Assembly: GCA_044892505.1 (NCBI GenBank)
Contig: CM097882.1
Span: forward strand, 220,844,001 to 220,908,000
Origin: Schmidtea nova
Taxonomy: Eukaryota
Reading direction: 5' to 3'
Length of the DNA stretch: 64,000 nt
The notes beneath the pieces are model-generated. The model was not told the DNA's origin. It did no database searches and saw nothing but the letters and a program-made list of their open reading frames with translations. Within the stretch, counting starts at the first letter, position 1, and each line of letters opens with the position of its first letter. Positions 27,216 through 64,000 of the stretch are shown here, piece by piece. A program made the translations under genes and the position numbers.

Positions 27216-28617
27216 TGTTGGGAGAATTATTGATACCGCGTATAATCACAAAATTTAGTTTAAAATAAGATTTAATTTATTTATCTTCGCCGCGATATAC
27301 CACGGTCGGAATTACGTTTTTATAATTACATGGCCTTACGCTAGCTAAAGCGTTCAAGAAAAATAAAAGTTAAAAATCTCCGCGCTATGTACAGCGATCG
27401 GTCTATAAATCAGGGAATTCCGCGCCATGTATGGCGATCGGTCTAAGATTATTTTTAGCAGTTGTATAAATTATTTAACAGGAATGTAGTGACGTATTTT
27501 TGTCTGTAATCTCTAAGTAAATCTTATCGAGTCGCACTTTGACCCGTAATGAAATTCGAAATTTGATCGAGTGGAATACCATTTTCTCTCATTCGTATCA
27601 TCTCGCATATGCTCCAGAACCTCAAATTTTTACCCTAAATTCTTAATACTTGGGAGGCTAATACCTGACTTTCATTTTGTGCTGCATACCTTCTGGTAGC
27701 TCTTTCCGCCTTTCCTACTGCGCTCCACACTATGCCCTCTGTGCAACCGACTGTGCGATATTTTAATTTTAGTTCGAAATTCGTCGAAAATTTTTACAAT
27801 TCATTATGAAAATATTTATCAAATAACTAAGTGTGAATCGAAAATCATTAGTAATAAATTAGCATCTATGCCCGTTCTCGAATTATGCTCACAAAATTAA
27901 AGGAATAAAAAGGTTGAACCGCCATGTGAGACCGTGAGGCCCCACAACGACGACTCGGACTCCCTCGTCGCGTGAGCAGCCTAGGAAGTATAATTATATG
28001 CATTAAAATATCAAAAATAAAGTAAATTTGAAATATAAAATTATAATTGAATAAAAATCATGGGTACATTAACATCATAAAAGAAACAAAAATAAAATAT
28101 TACGTTCCGTACTTGAATGTATTATTGAATGTTTCCTTGGATTTGAAGTAAATCTGGTTCTCGAAAAATCGTTCGGTTAAATAGAAAAATAGTTCTTAGA
28201 ATCAAAGTTTAGTCTTGATTGTAAGTTTTGATAGCAGTTTTTTTTAACAGTTGAGTTGTGATTTTTGGATCGGTATTTATACTGATCCGTCTGGTTGGAT
28301 TGACCAATCAGGATCAGACCGTCCATCAAAGTATTTTTATTATTTTATTCTAACCTAAACATTATTTTGTTTCCTTTTCCGGTTTCTCGCACTATTATTT
28401 TATTTAATTCTATCTTTTCTTATTTCAGGCCCCCTATTGCTGTTGTTTACCGGTTTATTTTCAAAATTTCCTTTTACTGAAAATTTATCAAATATTATTT
28501 GTCATTTTATTCTTGTTTTTAATTTGTTTTTATTGTTATTTTTATTTTTATCATTTCCTTATTGTTTCATGTTTTCGTTCTTTTATTGTGTTTTTAGGTG
28601 ATTTGGCGGGCCCAACA
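27216..28617 (-). repeat. Candidate 3' LTR of the giant element (unconfirmed)
   Basis: On the - strand it starts TGTTGGG and ends CCCAACA, like the inner element's LTR termini. It is non-coding and follows an AGGGG-containing tract. The partner LTR is not in the window. Confidence 0.3.
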
Positions 28618-28819
28618 TCACCCGGGGACCCCTAAAATTGCGTCCCGCAATTAATTATACATAAATACTTATATTCATCATCCATAAAAAGTTTTATAAA
28701 GTTATACATGCAAAGAAAAATCACATAAGGTGATCGAATTTATACATATCATAAAGTTTGTCATTAAATAGTCAAAATATAATGATTTGTCACAATAGTT
28801 CGATAAGTTATCATAATGT

Positions 28820-29389
28820 TTATACAATTTGTTCGATCGTCTGGCTCGCTTGGGGTTGAGTTCGGGTCCTCTCGTTGATTATTTGTAGCTCGTAGTGGGT
28901 TTGGATGTGGTTGAGATGGCTCCTTATTCGTCTTTGAGCTCGGTTATCTCGTCTGGAGGTTTGGTTGAAGATTTTCTGCTTTTGATTTAGGATTTTTATT
29001 CTATACGAGGCAAGCAAGATTGTGATTGCGATGATAGTTGTGCTGACTGATAGGATTATGATGATTGCTATGATCCATTTCTCTTGATATTCTATTTCAG
29101 CTTGGGATAGGCTTTTTATGGGTTCTCTACCTTCTTTCAGGATTTTTCGGGTTTCTTTTAATTTAAGTTGTTGGTTATCGAAGATTTGTTGGATTTGATG
29201 ATCTTGATTGTGGGGGTATTTCTGTCGGAATTCGTTGATTTCTTTAATTACTTCTTCGATTAGGCTGTCTACTTTTTGGTAGGTTTTGTCGGGTAGAACT
29301 CGTAATTGGGTTTCGGTTAGTTGTAAATCTTCTTTCTGTAGGGTAATGGTTGTTAATCATAGGAGTGTTGCTATTGCGAGCTTTCTCAT
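28820..29389 (-). pseudogene. Type I membrane protein (signal peptide, helical ectodomain, TM, basic tail) with one premature TGA at 29357-29359
   Basis: MRKLAIATLL*LTTITLQ...EKWIIAIIIILSVSTTIIAITILLASYRIK, in frame with the listed 28820-29017 ORF. Confidence 0.6.
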
Positions 29390-29464
29390 CTCTTTTATAC
29401 ATCGGTCAAAACAGCTTGACACTTTTTATTTTACATAATTTATTTACACTTGGTTTCCGCACAT

Positions 29465-30511
29465 TTATACAAGGGTTTCGTTGGGTTCGTGAAAACCTTC
29501 GTCTTGAGGTTCCACCTGGTTTATGGGGAGTGGCATCCATATTATCGTGCTTCTCCACATTTCGACTTCTTCTCGGTATGTGTGGGATATTTGGATCTCT
29601 TCGTCTAACAAGTATTCCAGATAGTTTGCTTGTTCTGTTAGGGTTTCTATTTGTTTTTCTAATTCCGTTAATTTTTTCTCTCTCTCTTCCTTCTCCATCA
29701 TTTCTGCTACTGCTGCTGTGATACTTGTTTCTTTTGTTGGTATTGGTTTTTCTGCCAGCTTCTTTCTCAGTTCTTCGTTTTCTTTTGTCAAATTTGTTAT
29801 GTTCTCTTCATAACTCTGCCTCGTTTCTTCCAGTCTTTCTTTAGTTCTTTTTAATTCTATTTTCTTCTGGGTAATCACTCCTTGATATCCATTTATGTCT
29901 CTTTTCATGTTTTCTTCCTTGTGATTCCACATACCTTTTTATTGTTCTTGATTGGCTAAGTCTTCTCCCATTCTTTGTCCTCGATAAGTTAATTCTTTAA
30001 TTTTCTTGGCTTGTTCCCTGATGAATTGTTGTCTTTTCTTACTCCATACTTTATTTGACGCTTCTTGACTGATCTTTTGCCCTAATTCCTCTTTTAATTC
30101 ATCGATCTCTTTAAACAGTTTCCAATCATCGCTGTACGCTGTTCGTTCTATTATCTCCCTTGCTTCCTTGTAAGAGTCTTTTGCCTCTTTTTTCCAATAT
30201 CTTGCTTGTTCTGTGATTGACTGAATCTTATGGTCTGTTTTTATCTGTTGTCTATCCCTATCCTCTCGTCGCTCTTTCATCATTTCTTTGTAGTATTCAT
30301 TTTGTTGCCTCAGCAATTTGTAGACTTCTATTTTCTCTCGACTTCTTTGATTCGTTTTCTCGGCTTCTCTTAATACTTCGGTTTGTCTTTCCAATTCCTC
30401 CTGTTTTCGATAATAGGCATGGATCCATAATCCAATCCGTTCCATATGATTGCTGATAACTTCGTCTTGATGTACGGTTACTTCTTGTAAGGTTACTTCT
30501 ATATTTCCCAT
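29465..30511 (-). pseudogene. ~348-aa E/K/R/Q-rich coiled-coil protein split by one in-frame TAA (29939-29941)
   Basis: ORFs 29939-30511 and 29465-29932 share a frame and are 6 nt apart. Heptad-like composition. Confidence 0.6.
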
Positions 30512-30624: not shown

Positions 30625-32001
30625 TTACGCCAACCATCCTTTTCTATCCGTTTTCTCATGTCTCTCCATTTCTATGTATAACGTGTCCTCGTATAGTCGC
30701 TCCCATAGGTTTTCTTTCCTTATAAACATTGGTTCTCCTGCTGCTAGTCCGCATTCTGTTGTTGGTTTTTCGCTCGTACTCGTATGTTTGTCGGTTTCAA
30801 AGAATTTTTCTACCGGTTTTCCCATACTTCTGATTCTTATAATGACTCCTACTTTCAAGGGCCATTCTATTAGGTCATCGTATTCTCCTTTACATAGCGA
30901 GAAAAATATTGACACGTGTGTTCCTTGTCCTCTTCCGTCTCCATTTGGGTATACCTTCAATCTTATCTTAACCCCATTTTTCCATAAATAAAATGGTGGG
31001 CTTATTACTGCTGTTTTAGTCATATTTCGAGCTTCTGTTAGTTTGTCTCGGAAATCTGTTATTTTCCATAAGTAAGGTGCAATTGGTAAGTCCCTTCTTT
31101 CGTCAATTTCTCGTATTAATTGATTATATTGTATTTCCATTCCTTTTCCCAATTCTTCTATGACTATTATTTTTTCTTCCATTCTTTCGCGAGTTAGTTC
31201 AAACTGCTCTCTCGTTTCTAGTAGTAAACTCATCATTATTTTATGTGATTCTACTTCCTTTTCCAATTTCTGGATTGTCTGTTCCGTTTCTTTTGCCGCT
31301 TCGTTTGTCATCTCCACATGCATTAATGCTGCTTCTTCTAGATGCTGTTTCATGGTTTGCCGCGTCCGCTTCTCCTCGCATCCCTGTTTGTTATATGGGC
31401 ATTCTCTTGGTCTTTCGGTACATACTTTCCAATGTTCATGTAACTTTATTTCTTCTGTTATTTCACAATTGTTTAGACATTTGCTTACATATTTTCCGCA
31501 TACTTTCTCCTCTGTTATATTCAAGTGTTCTTCTTCGATTTTTCTCCTCGTTTCTCGAGTTTCCCAATACTCGCATGCGATTTCTTCTTCTTTACATTTG
31601 TCCTTGTGTTGTTCTCTCTTCTTTAGAATTATTGTCTGTTGGCACTTCTCGCATTCGGCTCTTTTCTCCTCGCACTTTTCCATATGATTTTCTATATTAC
31701 TTATTTGCCCTTGCCATGTACAAGGTGTATTTATACACTCCGTTATGGTGCTCATAATTTCTCTCTGGGTTGCTTTGTCCGTTCTGGTTTCGTCCAACAC
31801 TATTCTTCCTTCTTTACATTCTGGGCATGTTGTTATTCCTGTTGCATCTAATTCTTGCATACATTTTGTACATATTCTACATCCACATATCGTTTGTCTG
31901 GGTTCTCGTAATAAATTGTTACATTTCCCGCATGTGAGCCTCTTGCTCCATTTTCTGTTTTCTAGTCTCAAAATTTCGATTACTCGTTCTTCTCTTTCCA
32001 T
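30625..32001 (-). CDS. Intronless full-length TRAF-family protein (RING, TRAF zinc fingers, coiled coil, MATH/TRAF-C), most like TRAF2/3/5
   Basis: CGKCNNLLREPRQTICGCRICTKC..CPEC RING; repeated C..C/H..C fingers; YLWKITDF..SPPFY..LKVYPNGDGRGQGTHVSIFFSLCKGEYDDLIEWP MATH motif. Confidence 0.93.
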   Translation of the reverse strand: MEREERVIEILRLENRKWSKRLTCGKCNNLLREPRQTICGCRICTKCMQELDATGITTCPECKEGRIVLDETRTDKATQREIMSTITECINTPCTWQGQISNIENHMEKCEEKRAECEKCQQTIILKKREQHKDKCKEEEIACEYWETRETRRKIEEEHLNITEEKVCGKYVSKCLNNCEITEEIKLHEHWKVCTERPRECPYNKQGCEEKRTRQTMKQHLEEAALMHVEMTNEAAKETEQTIQKLEKEVESHKIMMSLLLETREQFELTRERMEEKIIVIEELGKGMEIQYNQLIREIDERRDLPIAPYLWKITDFRDKLTEARNMTKTAVISPPFYLWKNGVKIRLKVYPNGDGRGQGTHVSIFFSLCKGEYDDLIEWPLKVGVIIRIRSMGKPVEKFFETDKHTSTSEKPTTECGLAAGEPMFIRKENLWERLYEDTLYIEMERHEKTDRKGWLA

Positions 32002-32093: not shown

Positions 32094-32450
32094 CTATGGC
32101 TCATTCGTTGAATCTGGTTCCGTTTCGTTGTTTAATCTATTTATTACCCAACTCATCCATCCTTCTTCGGATTCCTCTCCTTCTCCTCGTGTTAAATGGT
32201 TTATTTCTATTGCTTGTCTTTGATTGGTGTTGCTTATCGTTTGATTTTCTCTGGTGAGTTCGGTTATCACTCTTTGTTGTTCTTCTATTCTGTGTAATTG
32301 TTCGAAACAGTTGTTATAACTTTCTGATAGTAACATTTGTTTTTCCGCTAATTGGTTCTGTAATGAGTTGACTGTTCGTACTCATAAATCGCATTGTGCT
32401 TTCCATCTCATAGCCATAGTTATTTCCGTTGTTTCGTCTTGTTCGGTCAT
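32094..32450 (-). pseudogene. 118-aa coiled-coil accessory ORF with one in-frame TGA
   Basis: MTEQDETT...CDL*VRTVNSLQNQLAEKQMLL..., with tttag|aaaATG context. Confidence 0.5.
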
Positions 32451-32575: not shown

Positions 32576-35500
32576 CTATACATTCATTACTATCCCTTCG
32601 TCGTATCTTTCTTCGTCTTCTATTTGTTTCCAGAATTCTTTACCTTTCGTTCTTCTTTGAAATTCTTTCTGTATCTCTTCTGGTATTTCTATTCCTTGTT
32701 TCATAATTTTGATATCTGGCCATTGTAAGGCTGTCGCTTTGTTTCTCTTCCTGTATTTCCAGTATACTATCATGCTGGTCGTCAGTATTCCATACGCTAT
32801 TAATATTCCCATACTGATCAATCCTATTACTGCTTTTCCCATGTTTGTTTCTTTGTTTTTATTCTGATTTACTTTTATCTCATTTTGCGTTTGAGCCTCT
32901 GGCCTCTTCTCCTTCTGCACTTGACTCTTGACTTTGTTCATTACTTCTTGTGTAGACCAATGGCGATTTAGTAGTTGTTTGACGTCGTTTTCCGTTGTCT
33001 GGTTTTCTACGCCTCCTGGTTCGATCCGTTGCTGTATTTTCTCTGAGATCTGATATAATCCGCATTCTGGTTCTTCTGAACCTTTTCTGGTAAAGGTACA
33101 TATCGCGTATGTCTTATTTACTTCCATTTTCTTTAATTCGATTTTTTCGTTATTCCTTGTTTCTTTACAGTGGGTTAAGTTGTTTTCTTCTACTTCTAGG
33201 TTATACTTTGTCCAACATATTCCCTTTACTGTCTGATCAAGTCCTGTTAATGTCAGAGTTCTTTCTGTTTTAGTTGTTGGTTCCTTTGTTAACCCTTCTT
33301 CATCGAATTTCAGTATCTCTCCTTTTTGGAATGTCTTGCAATTCTCTATTCCTGGTTGACTTTCTTGGGTTCCTTTCTCCCATATACATATACTTCCTTC
33401 TCCGTTCATTTGTATTTCTTGTATTTCGGTTTCCTGGTTTGTTCGTGATTCGTCGCTTGTCTGAACTTGGTATTCCCTTGGTTCGTTGTACCATCCCCAG
33501 CATATTTTGTTGCTACTCTGGCCTTTTCTCCTTATTGTCATAGCCATCTGTTCTATTGTTATTCCTTTATCAATACGTTTGGACATTGCTATTATTAACG
33601 CTATGCATACGAAGTCCTGTTGGGGTGATACTCCTTCTCTCGTATTATTTGTGCTTCTCTCCCCTTCTCTTGGTTTGTCCGTTATGTTTTTCATCTGAGT
33701 TGCTGGTTGATCTATTGTGTTTTTAATTTCTTTCTTTGTTGGTTTTACTTTATACCATTCAAGTCTAGGCGTTTCATATTTTTGACATACGACTGTCTTA
33801 GGTAGCCCCGACTTCTTTTCCCTTTCTATTATGCATATCCGATGCATGGTTCCTCCATCCATTTCTTCTATTCGTACTATATCCTGGTCGGATTTTCTGA
33901 TTATGCATTTTAGTGGGTTATTTTCTCCAATTGGTTCATCTTCTCTATACCAACATATTTTCTCGGCTTCCTGGACATTTATTACTTTTATCCCTGTCTG
34001 TGGGTTTATTGCTTCTTCCCTATTGATCAATGTCAATATTATTGTTAGACCCAACCATTTTGAACTCTGCGGTAGGCTTCTGGTTCGTTTTTCATATTTC
34101 GTCTCTTTGCCTTTAATCTCTTTTATTTCTTTGTCTTCGTTGTTCATTCCTAGTTTTCCGATTTTTGCTTCTTTCTCATTCCTGGTCGATTTTGGTTCTT
34201 CTCGTGCTTTTTCTTCTAGTATTTCAACTCCATGGCTTGTATTATCTATATTTAGCCATTGGGTTGCCGATTTTCTTGGGTTTATCTTGCGTATCCATAT
34301 AGCTGATAATGCGATTATTACTGGTATGGTCGCTGTTAATATTCCTAAGCCAATTAATTCTTTAATTTGTTTATTCTCGTCTGTTTGTATAGATTCGCTT
34401 TGGTTGAACATTATTCCATATTGTCCTTTTAGTTTTCTCCTTAGTTGTTCTCGTTCCTCCTGCTTTCTTTTGACTTCTTTGATAACTTCTTCAGGTGTCC
34501 ATTTTGCTTGAGGGTCGGTTATTATTTTTTCTGCGTCCATTTGTTCATTAGTTTGGCTTAGTTCCTTGAATTCGATTTTCCTTGCTACTCCTTTTGATGT
34601 CGCGTTTGCTGGTGTATAGTAGGTTTCGCATCTTTCTTGTTGGTTTCCTAGTGCGTCCATTTTTTCTATTGCGCATACTTCGTACTCGCTATTAAATTGT
34701 AGTTTTTCGATCTTGATTTCTTTATTTGTTTTTCTGCACTCTCTTGATTGTCTTCTTATATGTTTCTGGACTATTATCCAACATATTTCTAATGTTTTAT
34801 TCTCTATTTTCCATAGTGTCAGGGTTGCTGAGGTCTTTTTCTCGGGTTTTGTCGTAACTTCTTGGCTTATCAGTTGTTTATTGTTTTTAAAGGTAGTGGT
34901 GTACTTCGGTTTTCCTTTGTTTCGTTGTCTTCTTTTATTTTTCCGTATTAACGTTTTGGTTCTTGTTCCGGATGAAGTTGTATATATTCCGCATTCTAGG
35001 TCGTTTATCGTTATTTGATCACCTTTCTTTATCAGACATATTTCGTAGGTTTGCTTACTTTCTAAACCTTTTATTTGTATCGTCGTTGCTCCTGTGCTTG
35101 TTCGGCATTGTGGTGTCATTCTTTTATTTGTTTCCTTTTCGTACCTCCTCCAGCATACTCCTTTCACATTTGGTTCTATCTCTTTTATTTCTAATGTTAT
35201 GTTTACTTTCTGCTTGATTTGTTTATTTCTCTTCCTCGTTCTCCTTCTGAACTTTATTACTTCTCCAGGTTGGAATGTTTTACATTTTGTGGTACCTTTC
35301 TTGTTTCTCTCTTTTTCTAGTAGGCATAGTTTGTACATCTTGTCTGCTCTTACTTCGGATACTTTAATTACTTTATTTGTTGTTGGTTTTCAACTTTTCC
35401 TTATTTCGTTTACGCCGATTTCTTCGTCATTCCTCGCCCAACATTTTATGTTAGTATTCTGTATATCTTCCACTTCTGTTATTGTCATAGTTTCAATTTC

Positions 35501-36796
35501 CATCCCTTCCTCTAGTCGTTTTATTATTATTAGTATGAGTGCTAAGCATAATACTTCCATTTGGTAAGACACTCTTTCGGTTTCGTTTGTGGTAACTCTT
35601 GCTTCGGGCCTCTCTATTGTAATTCGTATAGTTGGTGTTGTTTGCTTATCTATTGCCTGGGGTTTTTTGTTTTCTGTTCCCTGTGTCTCTGTTCTTCCAC
35701 ATTTTCCGACGATGTAATCTCCTTTGGGTGACTGTTGTACTGTCATGGTTGCTTTAGGTGTTTGGTAGTTTGCACATGCGATTGTGTTGTGTGATCTTGG
35801 ATGCTTTTGTTTTCTAACGGTGCATATTTTGTACCAGGTATTTAGATCTAAGTCATCGATCTCTATGATCTCTTGCTCGTGTTTTGAGATTCTGCAATCC
35901 ATCGGACTATTTTGTTCCGTGATTTTGTCCTTTTTTGACCAACATACTCGTTCGATTCCTTTTGCGTTTTTTATTTGTATTATTGCCCTTTCTTCACATG
36001 TCATTCTTTGACTTGGGTTAATTAACGTTAAAATCACTGTTAATAATAGTAACTCTGGTTTGAAGAATGGTTTTATGGTTGATTTGTAACCTGTTCGTTG
36101 GGTGTCATTTTTATCTCCTTTGTCTCTTTGTTCTCCCTCTTCATTTCTTTGTTTTTCGTCTTCATTTTTCTTTTCTTCTTTGTCTCGTTTCTTGTCTTTT
36201 CTCTCGTTTTCCTCTTTATCGGGTGGTTCGTGATCGTTCGAATTTTCTGAGTTGTTATCGTCGTCACTATCTGTATTGTCATCTCCCCCTGGCTCGTCGA
36301 AAATGTCGTCCTCGACATTGATTTCTTCTATTAGTTTCGCATACGCTAATGTCGTTAGATTGCTTGCCTCAAACTCTTGTGTTTCTACATGTTCTGGTAT
36401 TACTTTGTTAGTGGATTTATATTCCAAGATTTCCTTTTTGGCCTTGATCCAATTGTTGATGTATGTCTTCATCAATTCTTTCCATTTGCCTATGTATTTT
36501 TCTTCTTTCGGGCTGGTTGTGATTCTTAGATCTTTTCTTTCCATAAACATTTTCAATATCTCTGGCCATTTATACGTTATTAAGGCACTTCTTATACACC
36601 AGTTTTGGTTATGTTCTGTAAACTCATTGATCCTGAATGCTGGTTCGTTAGTATTCGGATTTATCCACGTAAGAATTGCTTCTGTTAGTTCGACATTATG
36701 CATCATTGTTAGTACACTGGGTTTCTTGACCGTATCAGTTAGGTAATCTATTTCTTCCTGATTGGAGATTGTAATATGAAGTTGACCATTTCCCAA
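32576..36796 (-). pseudogene. C-terminal polyprotein segment: acidic linker, then two duplicated modules of signal-like segments + Cys-containing FN3-like repeats + TM
   Basis: ORFs 35390-36796 and 32576-35338 share a frame (TGA at a conserved Cys position). Repeats follow ICW..C..I.I..L....Y.IC..C..Y.TP. TM segments IGLGILTATIPVIIALSAIW and IGLISMGILIAYGILTTSMIVYW. Confidence 0.7.
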
Positions 36797-39009: not shown

Positions 39010-39017
39010 TATATTAT

Positions 39018-39035
39018 TGGTGAGCCCGACGTGAT
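39018..39035 (+). promoter_or_regulatory. Primer-binding site complementary to the tRNA-Trp 3' end
   Basis: TGGTGAGCCCGACGTGAT; reverse complement ATCACGTCGGGCTCACCA vs eukaryotic tRNA-Trp ...ATCACGTCGGGGTCACCA. Confidence 0.85.
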
Positions 39036-39227
39036 CTAACGTTGGTGAAAGATTATTGAAAATAGATATTTGCGACTCGATATAAAGTGATAGAGAAGTA
39101 TTGAAAATTTGAAGTTGAGTTTGAAAGTTTGAAAGTTGGCTGAGGACAAGTAAATTTAATTTGTTTTTATTTTGAATTTTAGATCAAAGTGAGTCGATAT
39201 AACCTCAGAAGTTTGAAACAAACACAA

Positions 39228-51835: not shown

Positions 51836-52193
51836 CTTTTGCGATTTTTAAGAATTCTTTTACTCTTTCAATGTTTTTACACTGTATCGCATTGTGTAAG
51901 GCTGGTTGTCCTCCTATATCTTTCAATAAGAGTATTTCAGGGATTTTTCTCAATAATTCGGAAATAATTGGTTCGGTTGGTAATCCTTGTGCGTAACGGC
52001 TAATTATATGTCTGATGTCCCTTGATATGCCTACTTCGTCTCTAACATGCCATCTTCCCATTATCTCTCTCGCCTTCAATATGATTTCTTTATTTCTGAT
52101 TTCCTTTTGCCTTATTTCCGCTTTGTCGTCTTCGCTTGTGTTTGCTCTGAGCATATTTATCCTGGCTGTTTGTGATCTGGTTATTATTCGATA
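51836..52193 (-). pseudogene. Ankyrin-repeat segment, 5' part, in frame with the upstream integrase
   Basis: GGQPALHNAIQCKNIERVKEFLKIAK joins ETNQNLDVGNREQETPLM in frame once the insert and one TSD copy are removed. Confidence 0.85.
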
Positions 52194-53540: not shown

Positions 53541-53601
53541 CGGAAATGTCAGTCTTTTCTTTTGCCCAATCGCATTTGGATGGCTTGAGTTTTAACTTCC
53601 A

Positions 53602-56600
53602 TTATCTAAGTCTAACGAATACATCTCGCATATCCTGTATGTGTTGTTCGAATGTACTGGAGTAAATTAATAAGTCGTCGATGTAGACCATGCACTGCTT
53701 TATTCCGTGGGTGACGAAATTCATGCATCTCTGAAATGATGCTGGTGCGTTTGTTAGTCCAAATGGCATCTTTCGAAATTGATATAGGTCTCTACCGATG
53801 GTAAAGACAGTTTTCTCTTTATCTTCTTCCTTCATTTTTATTTGCCAATATCCGCTTTTCAGATCTAACGACGTAAAATATGCTGCTCCTTGTAGTGTTA
53901 GTAGCATTTCGTTGATGTCCGGTAATGGGTAAGTATCTCGTTTTGTCACTGTATTCAATCTTCGATAATCTATGCAGAATCTCTGTGTTCCGTCTTTCTT
54001 CTTTACCATTACCACTGGAAATTGCCAGGGTGAACAACTTGGTTCAATTACTTCTGCATCCAACATTTTCTTCACTTCTGCTTCCGCTACTGCTTTCTGT
54101 GCTTCCGCTAGTTTGTACGGCCTTAATGCAATTGGTGTTTCATCTGTTAATGGTATTGTATGTAGTGTGACATCACATGTTCCTAGATCTAAATCGGATG
54201 CTGCAAATATATCCTTATACTCCATCAGCAGTTTTTCTAACTGCTTCTTTTGATCCTCATTTAATAATTCACTATCGATATTCCAGGTTGGTTCTTTATC
54301 TTTCTCTGCTACTTCTATTGGTAGTTCGATATCCATCATTGGGGTTAATTTACCTAATCTTTCGTTTTCGTAGATTATTTTATCCTCCTCGTCGAAATTT
54401 ACCACGTTTATTGGGATTTCTCCATTATCATTTATGTTGACTAGTCCTCTTGCCATTGGCAACGCTTTTCTTTTCTCGAATCTTTTACTTGGTTCGAAAA
54501 TCATATCCCCTTGGATTGTCGGATCTATTTTTACGTAACATATTTTTTCCTTTCTTGCGGGTATTATCATTTGCTTTGAACTTGTCACTTTGGCTTCTAT
54601 TGCGCATATTTGTCCGGTGCGATCTTTTAGTCTCATTGTTCCGAGATCGATTACAATCTCTTTAAATAATGCTGGCATCAAATCTGTTCCGATAATGCAA
54701 GGCACGCTTAATGCTGGTATAACTGCTACGTACGTATCAATTTCCGTGTTTAAATGGCGTATTTTTACCCACCATCTTCCTGCTACTTCCACGATTTCTT
54801 TGCTACATGCAATTACGTGGACGTTTGTCCTGTCTATATCTCGTCTTTGTTCTTGTGGTATCCATTTGATATCGATGGCGGAGATATTTGCTCCAGTGTC
54901 GATCATTGCTTCGATTTCTCTTCCGTTAATTTCTATTGTCGTGGTTAGTACTGGACCTGTGTTTGATGACATTACGGCGATCGTATGTGCGTCTCCTTGT
55001 GGATCTACACTTCTACATCTTCTCATTTTATAATCTTCTGGTATCATGGGGTATACATTTGTCATTGGCATCATTTGCATCGTGGTCGTTCTTCCTCCTT
55101 GTAGTGGTTCTTGATACATGGTTGGTAGAGGTGCGTAACATTTCCATGCGTCGACTGGATTCTTTTCGATGTATTGTGGTGCTTGGTTCTTATACACTTG
55201 TCCTCCCTTATAGTCGTCATCGTCATCATCGTCGTCACTCGAATCATTTTGGGTTTTATATCCTTTCATCCTCTCCCATAAACCTTTTCTTTCTCTCTTG
55301 AGCTGTTGTCTTGCTTGTTCGTCATTCATTATCTTTTTAAATTTTCGTCCCACTTCTTCATCTGTTCCCTTCATTTTTGCGAGTATCTTCAACAATCTCT
55401 TTATTCGATGTATGTCCTTTGAGTGTCCGTGTAACACCATCGTTTTCGCAAGGAATGGTAAAAACCCTACTACCATTTTCCAATTCACTTTCTTTTCTCT
55501 CTTGTAGATATCGAAACACGCTAACATTTGTGTTATTATCACTCTGACGATTTGGATTATTAATATGACCCCCAGTATTCCAGCCATCATTTGTCCGAAT
55601 ATCAGAAATCTTCCCCACATTGCTTTCATCATATTTTCCTTGGCTTTCTTGAAATGTGCTGGTGACAACAACAGTTCATAATTTGGTCCTTCTCGATAAT
55701 TCGTTCCTCCCGTTATCGTTACGATATTTGACAGTAATGCTTCTCTTCTCGCTGGGAATAATATATTCTGCCTTGCTGCTTCTAAGTCCTTTGGACTATA
55801 TATTCCGTTGTTTGAGACATCTAGGTGGCTGAATTGCCTATCCTTTGACAACTGCATTAGCTCGAATTCTCTTGGTGCTATCACTTCGGCTCTTCCTGGG
55901 AACATAACCCATTTACCATCTGGTTTCTGATAAAGCGGTCCGTACGCATTACTACAGTTGAATGGATTTGGTTCAAACCCTTGTGGATTGATGATTCTCG
56001 TCACCGGTTGAACGTATCGTACTTTTCCTTTGTAATCGATTTCTAACTCATTTGTACAGGTTCCAGGTTTCAACTGCGTTGGTGCTGCTAGCGACTCGTG
56101 TGTCTTTTCGCAAATGTATACATACATTGCTTCTCCAACCACTCTTCCGAAATGTCCTTCTCTCAGTGGTAATAATGGCATCGCGCTATCTGGATTCGTA
56201 ATCGCTACGGCCAACTTTGTCTTTAATATTTCTCGATTCAGTATACAATCATTGTTTATCAGATCGTAGTACACTTTTTGTAATGAGGCTTGTCCTCTAT
56301 GGAATAAGAAATCCATTTTATTATTCACATACAGGTGTAGTTTGATATCCATTGTGTCGATTTTGGGTTTCGCATTTGGCACTTCTTGTTTTGACACATA
56401 TATTCCTGGATAATTTGTTTCGTATACCGTTGTACTACACTTAAGGGTTGCTTTCCCTTTTATGAATCTCATTCCTACATCCTGATTTGTGGTTATCAAC
56501 ACTGTTGGTGTGGCTCTCATCTCTATCCGTTTTTCTCTATGATCTGGTTTCAGTTGTTTTTTATTCTCTAAAGCTTCCTTGAGATGCTTTGCTCTAGCTT

Positions 56601-59600
56601 TGTCGTCATCTTCTTCTTCCTGGAACGTTTTTCCTTGAATTTCGTCGAACTTTGCTCCTTGTAGTAGTTGTAATTGACATTCGTTCACCTTTGGTTTGTA
56701 TACTAATGTTGACATTCCCGTTTGACACATGCTCCTGTCGATTTTACACATGGATAACGTTTTCATTTCTCCCGTTGTGGGTTCGAAGAATGCCTCGTAG
56801 CTTTTTAGTTCGACTATGTACGTATCCATCACTACTAAGTTGGTTGCGAGTGTTCCGAATATCGGGTAGGTTTCTCCTTGACAATATCCTTCTCCTCCCG
56901 TAATCCGTCCTGCTACATAGTACGTCTGTTGCAGCATCATTCCTGGCTTTCCTTTTATCTTGATTTTATCTCTTGTTGTTACTTCTCCATGTTTAAACAG
57001 TGCTTCGCAGTCTTCTCCTTGTAACACGATTGGTTCTCTTTCCGTTCCTGGCATGACAATTGCTGAATAATGTCCTCTCCCGCAGTAGAATGCGAATCTC
57101 GTCTTCTGCACTTTGCATTCATTCACCAGTGTCTTTATGAGTTCTGCTTCTTGATACACGTGGTACCATTGTTCCTTTTTAATCTTTTGCAACTCTACTG
57201 GAGTTGCATCTTTGCATTGCTCCGTACCTCTCAATGAATACTTTTCTCCTAACTTCATTTGGTCGCAATCAAACACTTCGAATGCTGTTGCGCTATCGGT
57301 GCTAATCATCCATATCAACATCATCATTATTATAGAACTCAAATTCATTGATGACTTCGCGTTTCCTGTTCCTGCTTGTTCTTTTTCTAACTCTTCCAAT
57401 ATTTTTTCGAATTTCTTTTTCATATTCTTCGCTTGCGTTTTCTTCTGGTCAGTTTTTATAAATGTTTCCCATCCTCCTTTGTTAATGACGTAAGGTTCTA
57501 TTTCTCTAGCTATAATCTTTGCGGTATTTTTTATATGTCTCTCTAATGCAGTGGGTTTTGGTCGACCTCTACTCAGTGTCAACAGATGGTAGATCGTGTA
57601 TGCAATGGCTATTACGTATTTATTATCCGTTTCCGCTCCTTCTGTCAATTTCTTTATTAACGTAGTGGTTCCTTGCCAGTCTAAATGATTTGACTTCGTC
57701 TTTTCTTTTATGAATTCCGGTAAGATGGGTGCGATTGCGCTGTGTAGTGACTTCGCCTTTTCGCTTATTTCGGTTATACGCCAGTATTTTCTCAATTCTG
57801 GATCAATTATTGCCAATATTTCCATTATTGTTTTCGATATCCATTCCTCCCCTTGACATATTGGTGTTGTCTCTTTTTCTTTTATCTCCGCGATTTTATT
57901 TAATTTCCTTAGACACAATTCCCATTGATCTTGTCTCTTTTCATCCTTATTTCTGATGACTACATTCGCTGGATCTGTCTTGGGTCTACCTCGAGGTCGT
58001 CTATCCATTCCTGTACCTGTTTCCACAAACCTTGTTGCCCGTCCGGTTTCTTCCGTGACATCTCTTGGTTCGTTAGCTCTTTCTTCTAACCATCTTTCCA
58101 TTTCCTGGGTTAATTGTACATTTTCGACATTCGCTCTTCTCGTTTCGTCTTCTGTCAAATCGTTTATTTCTTCTATTATTATCTCTTCTTCGACTTCTGT
58201 TTCTCCGGTATTGGTTACTTGTATTGTCGTAGGTAGTTCTTGTATTCTTTCGAAAATGTTGTCGTCTTTTTCCTTTGTTAATTCGGTTAGCTCTTCTATC
58301 ATATCGTCGCTATCCGTTAAAATTTCGTCCACGTCGTATGGTTGTGGTGGAGTCATTTCTCTATTCCCTCTGGGTGTTGTCTCAGATCGTCTTGAACTTG
58401 TCCCTGGCGTTAGTACTGATTTCATCGGGCTCGGCGTATTTATACTTCCGTGTATTTTATGGTTTTCTTCCTTACGTTTCAATGGTTGACCCGCTATTGC
58501 TTCTATTGTCAGGGTATTCATGAGATCTAGTTGTGCTGGCGTTATTCCAATTTCCAAACTGTTATCTAATGATCGTCCTTGGTGTTGTAAATGGAATGGT
58601 GGTTCGTATCTCAATTTCTTTTTAATATCTCGAATTTTTTCTGCTATTCCTACCCACAACTCTTCCTTATCCTTGTTTGGGTATATTATTCTTAAATGTA
58701 CTTTTTGTGGAATTTCTTGCGAGAATTCTTGATTTCTCCATTTCCTAATTACGTGGTCTAGTTGTTCCGGACACCACTCGTTAACTCTTTTATATTCTGC
58801 TATTGCTTTTGCTACTTTACGCAAGCATGTTATATCTTCTCCATTGACCACGAAAAAATCTGCGAGACCTTTTATTAATTTTCTCTTACCGTGTGCATTG
58901 GTTTTTAATATTTTGACAAATTCTTCCGTTTTTTGCTTTTCCCTTTCTAGCCACATAGCCGCGGTTTCTGGTCCATCTAGATCTATCGGTGTAGCTTTCC
59001 TTGTCACCATGCAAACCCTTCCCATTTCTGGTTCGCAGTCATCTTCCATTCCTCTTTCATATTCTTCTTCATATTCCCCTTCTTTTGGTTCCCAACATTT
59101 TCCTTTCTCGTTCCATTGTTTTTCTACGGGTGTTCGTATTCGTCTGTTGAGATTGAGTTCTTCTAATACATTTTCCCACTCTGGCCAAATTCGCCAATTT
59201 CGATAGATATCTACTATTTGTTGTAATTTGCGCACAACTTCTTTTTGTCGTTCTCGTTCTCTTTGCTCATCTTTAGCAGTTTCCCTTGGTGTATCGTCCA
59301 TTCTGATAACGTGGATTGTTTGGTAATTATCCCATATGCCAATCTTATATAGACGTCTCTCATCGTGATCCCATAATACATGTTCGTTATATTTCATGAT
59401 TATGTCGTCTTCCCATTCGTCTTCTGGTTCTCTTTGCACTAGTGTCTCGTTTATGACCTTTACTAATTCTCTTATGGTACAATCTGCTACCACTTCAATT
59501 TCTTTGGTATCCTCATTAGGTAACTTTACTGAAATTTTTAGATCCGTTATTTTCCCTTGTCTGAACATTGTTTTCCCCATTTTTGCAATTAATTTGTCGT

Positions 59601-60912
59601 GTGAGATCTGTGACCATCTCGTGTGACTTGTGTCGCGTATGCACTCAATACATCGTTTCAATTTCTCGTATTCGCTTCTTATTAACTCCTTTCTATGTTT
59701 TTTGACTTGTGGTATGATTTGTTCTATCAGGGAATTTAGATTCTTTCGTAAGACTCGTCCTTTCTCGTATTCTAATCGAGGTTTTATTCTCCTTTCGAAG
59801 CACGTGTTTGCCTCCTTTGCAACTTCTTGTAGGTTCTCTTCTTCCTTTTCATCACATATTGATAACAGGGTTACTTCTCCTGGCCATATACCTGTTTCTA
59901 CTAAGTGCGTTCTTTTCTTTACGAGTCTGTTCTGTGAATAGATGAATTTGTTTTTATATGAGCTACCTAGTCTATCCTCTACCCATCTGTAGATATCGTC
60001 CGTAAATGGAGTTTTGATCCAGATTCTTGGTGTAGATGTATTTATTATTATTGAGATGGTGTAATTGAGGAGTGGTTCCTCTATTAATTTCCCTACGTAT
60101 CGATTTAACATGTCTACTTCCCGGTCTTGTAACCATTCTTTGTAGTTCGTTTGTAATAATGCTTTCATGAATTTCCGATATTGTTTCTTGTCCATGAACT
60201 CTTCTTTATATATTACTTCTAGCGAGTTATCTAGTAATTTCTGGATTTCATCTACTTTTATCTGTGTAGGTTCTGAGGTCTTTATTACTTCTCTCTCTTT
60301 ATTTTCGTCTTCGGGTTCGTTTAATATGTCTCCTGCTAGGCTACTGATGTCGCTATCTCCTTCCTCATCGGAGAACTCTCTGGTGGTATTTCTTAACATA
60401 TTAATCTGTGCTATTTGGTTCGTTTCCCCCTGTATATTCTCCGTTGGTTTTGTTTCGTTTTTGCTAATTTCTGGTGTTTGTTCATTTTTGTCCTCTATTA
60501 CTTCGACTTTTCTCATTTTCTTTTCCAACTCATCTATTTCTTTTAAACGTCTTCTTATCATTTTTCCTTTAAATATTCGACTGATTCGGGTTTCGTGACG
60601 CACTGGTGGTGGAATTTCTTCTGGTTCTATTTCTTTAATAATCATCACGTTTCTTTTTGTTTCTACTACTCCCATGTTTTCCCATATATCCGTTAATTCC
60701 AACTTTACCTTTGGCGCACCTTCTATTTGTAGGAACGCTTCTCTGGGCAGTTTCGTTACTCCTGGAACCATCTGGTTTACTTTGTTGAATAATATTCTCA
60801 CTTCTTCTTTTACGTTATACTGGAATCTAAACACGGATTTGTTGGGCATGATTACCATCATTCCTCTTTTCCAAATCTCCCTCCTCTCTTCCTGGTTTAT
60901 CTCAGTTTCCAC
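53602..60912 (-). CDS. pol: Giant-element polyprotein core: 2-4 UBL-like domains, Bcl-2-like domain (~57460-57850), signal + class III glycoprotein + TM (~55430-57350), protease (DTG 54892-54900), RT (YIDD 53674-53685); RNase H deleted
   Basis: YVINKGGWETF; IIMMMLIWMISTDSATA-FEVFDC; NDCILNREIL..A.TNP; GEAMYVYIC; AMIDTGANIS; VKKKDGTQRFCIDYRRLN. Confidence 0.92.
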   Translation of the reverse strand: METEINQEERREIWKRGMMVIMPNKSVFRFQYNVKEEVRILFNKVNQMVPGVTKLPREAFLQIEGAPKVKLELTDIWENMGVVETKRNVMIIKEIEPEEIPPPVRHETRISRIFKGKMIRRRLKEIDELEKKMRKVEVIEDKNEQTPEISKNETKPTENIQGETNQIAQINMLRNTTREFSDEEGDSDISSLAGDILNEPEDENKEREVIKTSEPTQIKVDEIQKLLDNSLEVIYKEEFMDKKQYRKFMKALLQTNYKEWLQDREVDMLNRYVGKLIEEPLLNYTISIIINTSTPRIWIKTPFTDDIYRWVEDRLGSSYKNKFIYSQNRLVKKRTHLVETGIWPGEVTLLSICDEKEEENLQEVAKEANTCFERRIKPRLEYEKGRVLRKNLNSLIEQIIPQVKKHRKELIRSEYEKLKRCIECIRDTSHTRWSQISHDKLIAKMGKTMFRQGKITDLKISVKLPNEDTKEIEVVADCTIRELVKVINETLVQREPEDEWEDDIIMKYNEHVLWDHDERRLYKIGIWDNYQTIHVIRMDDTPRETAKDEQRERERQKEVVRKLQQIVDIYRNWRIWPEWENVLEELNLNRRIRTPVEKQWNEKGKCWEPKEGEYEEEYERGMEDDCEPEMGRVCMVTRKATPIDLDGPETAAMWLEREKQKTEEFVKILKTNAHGKRKLIKGLADFFVVNGEDITCLRKVAKAIAEYKRVNEWCPEQLDHVIRKWRNQEFSQEIPQKVHLRIIYPNKDKEELWVGIAEKIRDIKKKLRYEPPFHLQHQGRSLDNSLEIGITPAQLDLMNTLTIEAIAGQPLKRKEENHKIHGSINTPSPMKSVLTPGTSSRRSETTPRGNREMTPPQPYDVDEILTDSDDMIEELTELTKEKDDNIFERIQELPTTIQVTNTGETEVEEEIIIEEINDLTEDETRRANVENVQLTQEMERWLEERANEPRDVTEETGRATRFVETGTGMDRRPRGRPKTDPANVVIRNKDEKRQDQWELCLRKLNKIAEIKEKETTPICQGEEWISKTIMEILAIIDPELRKYWRITEISEKAKSLHSAIAPILPEFIKEKTKSNHLDWQGTTTLIKKLTEGAETDNKYVIAIAYTIYHLLTLSRGRPKPTALERHIKNTAKIIAREIEPYVINKGGWETFIKTDQKKTQAKNMKKKFEKILEELEKEQAGTGNAKSSMNLSSIIMMMLIWMISTDSATAFEVFDCDQMKLGEKYSLRGTEQCKDATPVELQKIKKEQWYHVYQEAELIKTLVNECKVQKTRFAFYCGRGHYSAIVMPGTEREPIVLQGEDCEALFKHGEVTTRDKIKIKGKPGMMLQQTYYVAGRITGGEGYCQGETYPIFGTLATNLVVMDTYIVELKSYEAFFEPTTGEMKTLSMCKIDRSMCQTGMSTLVYKPKVNECQLQLLQGAKFDEIQGKTFQEEEDDDKARAKHLKEALENKKQLKPDHREKRIEMRATPTVLITTNQDVGMRFIKGKATLKCSTTVYETNYPGIYVSKQEVPNAKPKIDTMDIKLHLYVNNKMDFLFHRGQASLQKVYYDLINNDCILNREILKTKLAVAITNPDSAMPLLPLREGHFGRVVGEAMYVYICEKTHESLAAPTQLKPGTCTNELEIDYKGKVRYVQPVTRIINPQGFEPNPFNCSNAYGPLYQKPDGKWVMFPGRAEVIAPREFELMQLSKDRQFSHLDVSNNGIYSPKDLEAARQNILFPARREALLSNIVTITGGTNYREGPNYELLLSPAHFKKAKENMMKAMWGRFLIFGQMMAGILGVILIIQIVRVIITQMLACFDIYKREKKVNWKMVVGFLPFLAKTMVLHGHSKDIHRIKRLLKILAKMKGTDEEVGRKFKKIMNDEQARQQLKRERKGLWERMKGYKTQNDSSDDDDDDDDYKGGQVYKNQAPQYIEKNPVDAWKCYAPLPTMYQEPLQGGRTTTMQMMPMTNVYPMIPEDYKMRRCRSVDPQGDAHTIAVMSSNTGPVLTTTIEINGREIEAMIDTGANISAIDIKWIPQEQRRDIDRTNVHVIACSKEIVEVAGRWWVKIRHLNTEIDTYVAVIPALSVPCIIGTDLMPALFKEIVIDLGTMRLKDRTGQICAIEAKVTSSKQMIIPARKEKICYVKIDPTIQGDMIFEPSKRFEKRKALPMARGLVNINDNGEIPINVVNFDEEDKIIYENERLGKLTPMMDIELPIEVAEKDKEPTWNIDSELLNEDQKKQLEKLLMEYKDIFAASDLDLGTCDVTLHTIPLTDETPIALRPYKLAEAQKAVAEAEVKKMLDAEVIEPSCSPWQFPVVMVKKKDGTQRFCIDYRRLNTVTKRDTYPLPDINEMLLTLQGAAYFTSLDLKSGYWQIKMKEEDKEKTVFTIGRDLYQFRKMPFGLTNAPASFQRCMNFVTHGIKQCMVYIDDLLIYSSTFEQHIQDMRDVFVRLR

Positions 60913-61086: not shown

Positions 61087-62793
61087 TTATTTCTGTTTTT
61101 GTTCATCCTCTCTTTGTATTCTCGCCCATTCCTGAGCGTGTCGTGCTTGACTTTCTCGATTCAATCGTTCGTTTTCGCTTTCTATTTTTCTCATCATGCT
61201 AATTTGCTGTTGATTGGTTTGCGGATTTCCTCTCGTCGTATTGTTTATAAGTTCCGTCAACCTTTGAACTTCTTGCATCAAATGTATTTCTTTGGTGGTA
61301 GTTTTGTTCTGACTATTGTTATTATTGACTTGTTGGTTCCCATAATCTTGTCGGTTTACGGTATTTGTTTGATTTCCGTAATTTTGTCGGTTCCCATTAC
61401 TCTGCCAGTTTCCTCGTTGATTACTTTTTTGTCCGCAATTTCTTGAATAGTGACCAGGTCGTCCGCAATTAAAACAGATTATCGTAGAACATCTACTCTC
61501 CGAATGTCCTTTAACTCCACATTTTCCGCAATTCAAATTTTGATAGCATTCTTGCTGCCAGTGTCCCAATTTTCCACATGTTTTACATTGTTTTGTTTGT
61601 CCTTGAGGGTTGTAATTGTTTTGGTTTCCAAAGTTCTGCACTTTATTTCCTTCATTCCTTCGTTGAGGGGGTGGTCGGTTTAATTGTTGCGAATTTGGAA
61701 TGTGATTGTTAAGATTTACCTCTGGTTCGGTTTGCGCTGTGTCCATGGCTAAATAAATTCTGCCCTCACTTCCTATCATATGCAATTCGAATCGGTTAGC
61801 TGTTTCTAACGCTTGATCAATGGTCTTGCATCCTTGGCATCCAACTTGCGCTCTTATGTCAGGTCTTCTTAATCCTCCTATGAAGATGGCTGCCATTAAC
61901 TCCTCGTTTATTGGACCTCCATCCTTGAATACTGATTTTGCTAATTTTTTCAGTTCACTCGCGTATACCGCATTAGATTCATTCATCTTTTGTTTCCTCA
62001 TTGAAAATTCTATGAATGCCTCGCTTAGCACTTTATTTATTCCAAATGTTTGTTGGAAAAAGTCCTTTATCGCTGTCCAATTTGTAGGTGGATTGGTACC
62101 GTTTTTCGCTTCCAAATATAGGTCCAATGCACTATCTTTTAGATATAGCTGAATTCTGCTTACCGTTGTTTCAGCTTTCCATTTGCATACTTCCACGAAT
62201 ATGCCAAATTCCTTTAAGAAGGTTTCTAATTTACTCGCATCTCCGTTAAACGGTTCTCCTGAAAATTTATCCTTTATTTCTTCTCTTGGTTCACCCATTT
62301 CAATTCCACTGTCTTGAGTTATTTTACTTTCGTTTCCTCTTGTTTCTAGTTCGTTGTTATGTTCGTCTTCTGTTTCACTCGAGCTTGAATCGCTTTCTGT
62401 TTCTCTTATTACTTCGTTATTCGATATTATACTTTCGTTATCACTCTCGTTGATTTCTACCTCTGGTTCTACCTCGTTTTCTACTTCTTCGATATTATCG
62501 TTGTTAGTTTTGTCGATTTCTATTTCACTTGTTTGGTTCTCCTTGGGTTCCGCTTGGTTTTCTTTGTTACTTGAGCTGTTGCTTACTACTGAAAATTTAT
62601 CGTTTTCGATAATCGATTTATCTCTTATTATTTTCCTTGCTTTACTCCCTTGTGGGTTTTTGTGGTTATCTTTGCCGGCTTTCTGCTTTTTTGCTGATTT
62701 TGTTGTAGTACTAGTTTTGTCTTTTTTGTTGCTCTCACTGCCGACTTTCTTTTCTGTTGGCTTTATTACAACACTCTTTACTCCTGTTCTCAA
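61087..62793 (-). CDS. gag: Gag of the giant element (acidic/low-complexity N-terminus, capsid-like domain, three CCHC knuckles), same frame as pol
   Basis: PFNGDASKLETFL..QLYLKDSALDLY; CKTCGKLGHWQQEC, CGKCGVKGHSESRC and CFNCGRPGHYSRNC. Confidence 0.93.
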   Translation of the reverse strand: MRTGVKSVVIKPTEKKVGSESNKKDKTSTTTKSAKKQKAGKDNHKNPQGSKARKIIRDKSIIENDKFSVVSNSSSNKENQAEPKENQTSEIEIDKTNNDNIEEVENEVEPEVEINESDNESIISNNEVIRETESDSSSSETEDEHNNELETRGNESKITQDSGIEMGEPREEIKDKFSGEPFNGDASKLETFLKEFGIFVEVCKWKAETTVSRIQLYLKDSALDLYLEAKNGTNPPTNWTAIKDFFQQTFGINKVLSEAFIEFSMRKQKMNESNAVYASELKKLAKSVFKDGGPINEELMAAIFIGGLRRPDIRAQVGCQGCKTIDQALETANRFELHMIGSEGRIYLAMDTAQTEPEVNLNNHIPNSQQLNRPPPQRRNEGNKVQNFGNQNNYNPQGQTKQCKTCGKLGHWQQECYQNLNCGKCGVKGHSESRCSTIICFNCGRPGHYSRNCGQKSNQRGNWQSNGNRQNYGNQTNTVNRQDYGNQQVNNNNSQNKTTTKEIHLMQEVQRLTELINNTTRGNPQTNQQQISMMRKIESENERLNRESQARHAQEWARIQREDEQKQK

Positions 62794-63403
62794 CGGGATT
62801 ACTTTTGTATACTCAATTTTCCTGTCCTATTTCTTATCGTGTTCTGATTCTTCTTGCTTGATTGATTGATTTGATTGATTTGTATATCTAAAATACAAAG
62901 GTTCTCAACGATACATTATTGTTATCGTCGCGCTTTTATTCCCTTTTTTTCGGGATTACTTATTACTGGGTTTTCATTATTTCCCAATTCCCAGATTCCC
63001 CTTTATTTTTAGTCTATTTAAATTATCTATAGACTGGTCACAATTATCTATTTAGGTCGTAATAATTATCTATGTTTTATCAAATCAATTACTTTTCCCA
63101 CAGTTTCCCAATTTATTGGTCGCTCGAGCGCTCTAATTCCCTGAGTCTTTCTGACTCACTTATTATTATTTATCATTTCTCTTCATTATTCCCTGCTAGC
63201 AATCATTTTACTCATTCTGCCGGTTGCTCCGGTCAGCCCAAATTTTTACTATTCTCCTTGCATGCTTTACTTAAGGTTGCATAATCAGCTTTACTCGCAT
63301 TCTCTTAACTACTGGTGCGCACTACTCTAAATCTCGTCGACGATTATACTATGGGTCTATATTCCCTCTGTTACTATTTATCCGGATATCTCTATAATTC
63401 ACT

Positions 63404-63755
63404 ATGGCTCTTCTGGCCTCAATTTTATATCTCGCATGGCTCTATTGGCCTCAATTTAATCTCTCAAATGGCTCTATTGGCCTCAATTTAATCTCTCAAA
63501 TGGCTCTATTGGCCTCAATTTAATCTCTCAAATGGCTCTATTGGCCTCAATTTAATCTCTCAAATGGCTCTATTGGCCTCAATTTAATCTCTCAAATGGC
63601 TCTATTGGCCTCAATTTAATCTCTCAAATGGCTCTATTGGCCTCAATTTAATCTCTCAAATGGCTCTATTGGCCTCAATTTAATCTCTCAAATGGCTCTA
63701 TTGGCCTCAATTTAATCTCTCAAATGGCTCTATTGGCCTCAATTTAATTTCTCCA
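63404..63755. repeat. Tandem array, ~11 x 32 bp (ATGGCTCTATTGGCCTCAATTTAATCTCTCAA)
   Basis: Direct reading; units start every 32 nt from 63436 to 63724. Confidence 0.95.
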
Positions 63756-63795
63756 TAACGCCTAGCTAGGTCATTCAATATGGCTCATTGGCCTC

Positions 63796-64000
63796 AACCC
63801 TTTGTTTCAAGGGACAAACCGCTGATAACCCTTTGTTTCAACGGACAACTCTAATAACCCTTTGTTTCAAGGGACAAACCGCTAATAACCCTTTGTTTCA
63901 AGGGACAAATCGCTACTAACCCTTTGTTTCAAGGGACAAACCTCGTATAACCCTTTGTTTCAAGGGACAAACCTCGTATAACCCTTTGTTTCAAGGGACA
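63796..64000. repeat. Tandem array, >=7 x ~31 bp (AACCCTTTGTTTCAAGGGACAA + variable 7-9 nt), running off the window
   Basis: Direct reading; each unit has a CCCTT/AAGGG inverted core. Confidence 0.95.

Follow-up and report, generated by a model that had tools for sequence, protein, structure and literature searches.

A recently active giant Gypsy element of Burro type in the planarian Schmidtea nova, probably with the habits of an endogenous retrovirus

The Burro elements of planarians are among the largest long terminal repeat (LTR) elements known. One of them is reported to aid regeneration. Burro/GYPSM1 (Jurka 2007; Grohme 2018) carries Gag, MATH/TRAF, Ubi2/SUMO-like and BCL2 domains, an in-frame env, a dUTPase-like region, ankyrin repeats and BIR, and has been proposed to be a provirus meddling with apoptosis and ubiquitination (PMC6431247). 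Here we describe a stretch of 64,000 nucleotides (the window) from contig CM097882.1 of the 1.25-Gb genome of Schmidtea nova, which holds a broken copy of a Ty3/Gypsy element (the outer element) with another such element inserted in it (the nested element). The outer element shares with Burro/GYPSM1 a length of about 30 kb (internal region up to 25 kb), a single polyprotein of ~5,000 amino acids and tandem repeats. Also common to both are a CCHC-bearing Gag, ubiquitin-like (UBL) and then BCL2-like domains before env, the order protease, reverse transcriptase, RNase H, integrase (PR-RT-RH-IN), ankyrin repeats and MATH/TRAF, as is an env that lies in frame between gag and pol and is related to mononegavirus-type fusion glycoproteins. 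A first-pass annotation of the window had named Burro as the nearest precedent, and section 7 of PMC6431247 agrees with it; its case for novelty was overstated, the core architecture having been published for Burro/GYPSM1 together with the provirus and apoptosis idea.

In the outer element TRAF forms a full-length gene of its own that follows the polyprotein, whereas the MATH domain of GYPSM1 lies inside the polyprotein and that of the D. tigrina element is an upstream open reading frame (ORF). The cassette of FN3-like modules and transmembrane (TM) segments, the ORFs in the LTR, the acceptor-led genes and the env exchange described below are unmentioned in section 7 of PMC6431247, and no BIR was found here. 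Burro1 (Lee et al. 2026, Dev Cell, as cited in PMC13465017) is another planarian giant Gypsy reported to have death-pathway cargo, RING included. Pfam detected no BIR domain in 17 window ORFs or the upstream RING ORF, a scan that did not take in a broken 118-aa gene. Because the RING gene here has no BIR partner, the B-IAP mechanism of Burro1 is not directly transferable, and on its gene content the element is built like Burro but is not Burro1.

Two further systems invite comparison. Six gag-env-pol elements with an HSV/gB-type env, Smed_errantivirus_1-6, have been catalogued from S. mediterranea and, in the text available, share with ours the Gag-env-pol order and, it seems, the gB-type env; by eye, the motifs of the outer env are nearest to Smed_5 (e.g. 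PGTERE), those of the nested env to Smed_2 and those of a third family to Smed_1 (PMC13524379). In what was available of it, that source treats gag, pol and env only, and its main text contains neither 'Bcl' nor 'Burro'. The planarian nidovirus PSCNV likewise has a giant polyprotein with captured ankyrin and fibronectin-type modules that were proposed to modulate the host, but it is an RNA virus, its fibronectin modules are of type II and not type III, and no TRAF or Bcl-2 is seen in the part of the account available (PMC6211748).

The outer element reads as one interrupted frame made of eight pieces on the minus strand (62826-61087, 60957-53602, 53591-52548, 52547-52194, 52193-~51840, ~37950-36748, 36796-35390 and 35389-32576). 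A single frame of ~5,400 codons had been proposed at the outset, and that length fits the 5,641-5,736 codons of intact copies less a deletion; the frame opens at 62826, however, and not at 62793, and has its first ATG only at 62298. Isolated stops, which number six, and the loss of RNase H, which comparison with a second copy shows to be a ~640-bp deletion near 53550, were recognized from the start, whereas the frame changes at two places, near 53550 and near 36770, and not at one. The early reading of the domain order as Gag-UBLs-Bcl2-glycoprotein-PR-RT-IN-ankyrin-FN3/TM x2 holds on Pfam matches, on pooled profiles for UBL and Bcl-2, and on the fold match of one module for FN3. The element does not end at 27216, as had been thought, since its 3' LTR reaches 25432 and holds two ORFs. 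The 5' LTR is found immediately past position 64000, where the window stops, and is 98.5% identical to the 3' LTR; the pair is flanked by a 4-bp target duplication, CAGA, found past the 3' LTR at 25431-25428. The full length of ~29.9 kb follows from a span of 43.2 kb, less the 13.9-kb nested element and plus the ~0.64-kb deletion. The TG...CA LTRs, the target duplication and the PR-RT-RH-IN order (with RNase H taken from the frame of the second copy and, by Pfam, from the nested element) place it among Ty3/Gypsy elements, and its primer site appears to resemble the end of tRNA-Pro.

The individual domains are supported to different degrees. The fusion glycoprotein (fusogen; PF24664, 5e-70) sits in frame between the Bcl-2-like domain and the protease and occurs in two other families of the genome at 37-39% identity. 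Single UBL domains fall under the Pfam cut-offs, and a pooled profile of nine rows matches ubiquitin-fold chains (best single-domain E 2e-6). The window's Bcl-2-like domain alone gives no Pfam match, with Pfam Bcl-2 reaching E 0.007 and 0.0006 in two sister families; a profile pooled over families has a best E of 3e-4, and the 60 best PDB matches listed are Bcl-2-family entries. The domain is predicted to be all-helical (pLDDT 58). A spacer of dUTPase-like size between protease and reverse transcriptase is kept in three families and has no Pfam or PDB match. Homologue searches with the FN3 cassette, the Bcl-2 region and the fusogen were blank, and those with the Bcl-2 region or fusogen returned no Burro sequences; the length and word limits of the database make such blanks weak evidence.

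Ahead of Gag the frame is open without an ATG for 155-197 codons in all copies examined. This leader is free of stops where each of the other two frames has 18, its length changes are multiples of three, and its ratio of nonsynonymous to synonymous change (dN/dS) is 0.53. An AUG spliced on at a TAG conserved in 7/7 copies was considered as the opening of the leader but found no support, the matching site of the sister family being out of phase; the idea that the first Gag ATG has an acceptor proved wrong.

Other copies show that the window is a damaged representative of a family that is otherwise well kept. A genome search with the last 331 residues of the polyprotein gave 2,520 candidates, of which 121, the best-scoring matches and not a random sample, were scored; 24 of these have a single stop-free frame of 5,641-5,736 codons. 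The layout of the window is kept colinearly in all five intact-frame copies that were fetched, TRAF, coiled-coil and membrane genes included. Pooled pairwise among these five, dN/dS is 0.00-0.01 for PR/RT/IN, 0.03 for the fusogen, 0.08 for the Bcl-2-like domain, 0.02-0.14 for the UBLs, and 0.07 for the ankyrin region. The FN3-like regions have 0.13-0.27, and the stalks and tails 0.15-0.35; of the separate genes, TRAF has 0.03-0.12 and the LTR ORFs 0.15-0.19. The cargo is present in the copies, and all cargo tested is under purifying selection. The genes stand in the same order in a sister family, which has a single FN3 unit where the window family has two (37-39% identity) and whose TRAF is 52% identical. 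The initial proposal of a giant, env-bearing Gypsy lineage with inherited and selected cargo is thus upheld by the very comparison of copies and of cargo dN/dS that had been suggested as its check. In four of the five fetched copies and in the sister-family copy the two LTRs match each other at 99.9-100%, and transposition has therefore been recent. On balance we favour an account in which the outer element is a broken member of a Burro-type Ty3/Gypsy family, one that has been active recently and likely lives as an endogenous retrovirus.

The history of the envelope speaks to the same point. When the window family is compared with the sister family, synonymous change is saturated, or close to it, in each of the other 12 regions, reverse transcriptase included (proportion of synonymous differences, pS, 0.66-0.86), whereas the fusogen has a pS of 0.24-0.32 and 97% amino-acid identity. 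Across 57300 to 55300 the DNA identity is 0.90-0.94, with sharp edges; the flanks have 0.65-0.79 and reverse transcriptase has 0.81. Because the synonymous sites of the fusogen are unsaturated and DNA identity is high only from 57300 to 55300, the comparison, made on one pair of copies, shows an env block that was swapped between sister families and then conserved.

We suggest that the fusion glycoprotein, being under selection, would let particles enter other cells, and that the predicted FN3-fold membrane proteins likely act at the surface of the cell or particle. Support for the infectivity of the lineage is indirect only. It is possible instead, if rather doubtful in our opinion, that the element replicates inside cells only, that the fusogen and FN3-like proteins act on host membranes, and that the cargo is kept for helping carrier stem cells to survive. 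The very many copies (2,520 and 1,088 first-look candidates) would suit such a life, as would the report, cited in PMC13465017, that the B-IAP of Burro1 protects stem cells. However, few parts are as well conserved as the fusogen, three families retain its signal-like stretch and TM segment, and the swap moved it as an exact block; a stem-cell benefit as in Burro1 is at odds with the lack of a BIR in the ORFs scanned.

In our favoured scheme of an endogenous retrovirus, the polyprotein would thread through the endoplasmic reticulum membrane. Hydrophobic stretches lie on both sides of the fusogen and of each FN3 unit, and this arrangement would leave Gag/UBL/Bcl-2-like, Pol/ankyrin and the tails in the cytosol, with the fusogen and FN3-like modules lumenal; signal peptidase and the element's own protease would then free the parts. 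The faster-evolving FN3 cassette most likely binds extracellular partners of the host, as an attachment factor or a decoy. As for the TRAF, RING, UBL, ankyrin and Bcl-2-like parts, their most likely role is to restrain ubiquitin-dependent signalling of stress and death in the producing cell.

The FN3 assignment is made on the fold match of one module. AlphaFold models the module at 34964-35212 with a pLDDT of 83, and the 50 best VIA matches to it are almost all FN3-type domains, in keeping with an FN3 beta-sandwich. At the level of sequence the window ORFs give no Pfam fn3 match, and an FN3-like profile scores 15.1 with hhalign against a shuffled maximum of 15.5, with contactin-4 at E 1.2. The tail of the second unit, the last in the frame, bears an invariant W-P-D-[IV]-K motif and has 24 invariant columns in 9/9 rows. 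Neither this FN3/TM cassette nor the acceptor-led gene row, the LTR ORFs or the env swap was found in the literature searched, which did not extend to Grohme 2018, Lee 2026 or the Repbase entry, any of which may describe the cassette or the accessory genes; provisionally, the FN3 membrane-protein set is apparently undescribed.

The first-pass annotation went further and had the element suppress apoptosis and rewire TNFR/NF-kB signalling. In its full form, in which the Bcl-2-like domain binds BH3 proteins and blocks apoptosis and the FN3 receptors signal through the element's TRAF to rewire NF-kB, this seems to us unlikely. The Bcl-2 profile has the Bcl-2 family as its 60 best PDB matches, yet the BH1 NWGR motif of canonical anti-apoptotic Bcl-2 proteins is replaced in the outer, nested and third families, all three that were aligned, and suppression of apoptosis is weakened by this loss. 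A complete TRAF2/3-like gene adjoins receptor-like units in both the window and sister families, and the strict conservation of the last tail would fit a signalling role. A TRAF-binding motif in the cytosolic tail is a feature of TNFR mimics of the LMP1 type, but the last tail has no canonical one and the first tail only a weak AREE; moreover, the sister family has one unit only, and the nested family has neither these modules nor a TRAF match in the Pfam scan of window ORFs. The evidence for TNFR/NF-kB rewiring is the TRAF gene alone.

The broken and nested state of the window copy, and another large insertion in the second copy, might suggest that pieces of host genes and nested repeats have come together by chance in a single decayed copy. 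This reading is refuted by the one frame from Gag to the last tail in 24/121 copies, the colinearity of 5/5 fetched copies, the gene order kept by the sister family at saturated synonymous distance and the separation of element TRAFs from the sampled genomic MATH domains (support 100/99).

That tree, from which nine of 18 genomic MATH matches (<100 aa) were dropped, sets eight element TRAFs as a group apart from nine genomic rows; we infer from their clustering and short frames that these remaining rows are host genes. Among the genomic MATH matches, ~50 short-frame loci are clustered at 405-455 Mb of contig C2, and many others are 476-aa frames at scattered sites; the one 476-aa frame checked is the TRAF of the sister element. 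The closest solved structures to the outer element's TRAF are TRAF3/5/2 (E 6.5e-24), and full-length TRAFs are borne by elements of at least two families.

Seven separate accessory genes accompany the polyprotein: RING upstream, then the 118-aa, TRAF, coiled-coil and membrane genes, and two genes inside the LTR. The TRAF, coiled-coil and membrane genes had been recognized before, with the coiled-coil gene taken for two ORFs where there is one gene of 362 aa, and the 118-aa gene at 32450 missed. The RING gene has the primer site on one side and the tandem arrays on the other, and it occurs in the sister family too, where the 118-aa gene has a 116-aa homologue and the small membrane protein is 33% identical. 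In copy L013 the polyprotein, 118-aa, TRAF, coiled-coil and membrane genes are separated by four gaps of 79-125 nt, within the spacing of flatworm operons (same-strand genes <=300 bp apart). A YAG stands 0-4 nt before the ATG at 13/17 accessory starts (6/7 in the window family, 4/7 in the sister family, 3/3 in others) against 80/476 control ATGs (17%), a count in which the 17 starts are not independent of one another and the control set is imperfect. By eye, both types of LTR have donor-like sites 3' of the TATA box. The poly(A) hexamers that follow stop codons (6/8, mixed, in A-rich DNA) were not used as evidence. Four sequencing runs, of unrecorded kind, cover the stretch in 30/30 bins and gave no splice-like joint among 15/66 rows, which is uninformative.

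Each of the seven genes is likely expressed from an mRNA of its own through the acceptor-like site before its ATG; this site would be joined either to a donor close to where the LTR begins or to a spliced leader supplied in trans. Complex retroviruses make subgenomic spliced messages and have accessory ORFs overlapping the LTR, features that this element would share. Cer1 of C. elegans makes an SL1-trans-spliced subgenomic mRNA (PMC3315495). In contrast to both, the present element has seven candidate accessory cistrons in a row with flatworm-operon-like gaps. Spliced-leader trans-splicing occurs in planarians and resolves flatworm operons with gaps <=300 bp, according to the portion of PMC12582326 available. 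We can entertain, only tentatively, a joint reading in which the accessory genes form a spliced-leader operon yielding seven mRNAs by host trans-splicing, captured and strand-truncated FN3 receptors serve as decoys or attachment proteins, and env is traded between families as a cassette.

Table 1. Features of the outer and nested elements, in window coordinates unless another locus is named.
Feature	Position	Strand	Remarks
RING gene, 153 aa, C-terminal C3HC4	L001:2584-3042, just beyond window end	-	Pfam C3HC4_3 6e-11
32-bp and 31-bp tandem arrays in leader	63404..64000	-	RING gene, primer site and 5' LTR beyond 64000
ATG-less open leader, 176 codons ahead of Gag	62299..62826	-	open in 7/7 family copies
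Gag from first ATG: capsid-like region, CCHC knuckles	61087..62298	-	Pfam (knuckles)
Up to four ubiquitin-like domains, individually weak	58483..60876	-	pooled profile; dN/dS 0.02-0.14
Bcl-2-like helical domain	57433..57945	-	BH2-type GGW present, BH1 NWGR absent
Fusion glycoprotein PF24664, signal-like stretch and TM	55300..57342	-	Pfam 5e-70; block swapped with sister family
Protease (DTGA), spacer, reverse transcriptase (YIDD)	53544..54960	-	RNase H deleted in window copy
Integrase and start of ankyrin region, two stops	51836..53591	-	Pfam Integrase_H2C2 1e-20, rve 8e-11
Nested element, second family	37957..51835	+	~1.05-kb LTRs 37957-39009 and 50764-51835; target duplication CTTT
Ankyrin repeats and helical region	36059..37956	-	Pfam Ank_2 3e-14; frame change near 36770
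First surface unit: signal-like stretch, four FN3-like modules (one stop-broken), stalk, TM, tail	34059..36058	-	
Second surface unit: signal-like stretch, three FN3-like modules, stalk, TM, 61-aa tail	32576..34058	-	
118-aa gene, no known family	32094..32450	-	stop-broken here, open in two other copies
TRAF: full-length, intronless; RING, zinc fingers, coiled coil, MATH	30625..32001	-	Pfam
Coiled-coil gene	29465..30511	-	362-aa frame in other copies, stop-split here; dN/dS 0.06
Small membrane-protein gene: N-terminal hydrophobic stretch, one TM	28820..29389	-	stop-broken here; dN/dS 0.23
3' LTR of outer element	25432..28617	-	3,186 bp, TG...CA
LTR ORF1, 159 aa, no known family	26688..27167	-	YAG directly before ATG; dN/dS 0.19
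LTR ORF2, 198 aa, no known family	25901..26497	-	dN/dS 0.15; 31% identical homologue in sister family

The nested insert, present as had been noted, is more than an insert, being itself a Gag-UBL-Bcl-2-like-env-pol element, and its empty site is seen in the second copy. Its order is Gag-UBL-Bcl-2-like-fusogen-PR-RT-RH-IN followed by a C-terminal membrane glycoprotein (48093-49220, plus strand) with a signal-like stretch, a domain of ~320 aa and a TM segment. This domain has a homologue in the third family and matches neither Pfam nor the FN3-like profile. In the third env-bearing family a separate gene, preceded by YAG, follows the polyprotein (L028:3950-4942, plus strand); it has no Pfam match, and its motifs, by eye, look like those of a DEDDh exonuclease. 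A metagenome scan, with at least two confirmed cases among the 597 pattern matches listed, found the same fusogen class in one contig ordered Gag-UBL-Bcl-2-like-env (L085) and in another that is gag-env-pol with no UBL or Bcl-2-like matches (L086).

Several observations concern single copies. Two of the five copies (L011/L014 and L007/L010) have a divergent LTR type on internal regions that are ~94% identical; against the LTR of the window copy these LTRs reach only ~68% across 0.4 kb, and their two ORFs still resemble the window's. Divergent LTRs on near-identical interiors suggest that LTRs may have been exchanged too. The second copy (L003-L005) has an insertion of ~18 kb in its fusogen, whose ORFs, one of 1,357 aa and, by eye, an ATPase-like and a capsid-like one, suggest a Polinton/Maverick. 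A 971-aa frame of a diverged relative (L019:606-3518, minus strand) runs UBL-protease-ankyrin-FN3-like with no fusogen, reverse transcriptase or integrase between, and is possibly an internally deleted, non-autonomous form. Outside the element, long inverted repeats at window positions 19659-22078 and 6829-8432 appear to be DNA-transposon remnants, and the ORF at 21491-22078 is transposase-like, piggyBac-like by eye.

Taken as a whole, the many copies with unbroken frames and near-identical LTRs make the infectivity of such elements testable in an animal with RNA interference tools, and the env swap amounts to a natural experiment on the selection that acts on the envelope. TRAF genes have been reported as expanded in planarians (PMC6109357, in its accessible part), and element-borne TRAFs may inflate counts of host TRAF genes; if the joint reading is true, they would explain part of that expansion. 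Should the FN3 cassette and the acceptor-led row hold, a Gypsy element would have reached the accessory-gene complexity of a large virus by way of host RNA processing, and, were the operon, decoy and env-cassette reading to prove right in all its parts, a complex retrovirus would have evolved independently in flatworms.

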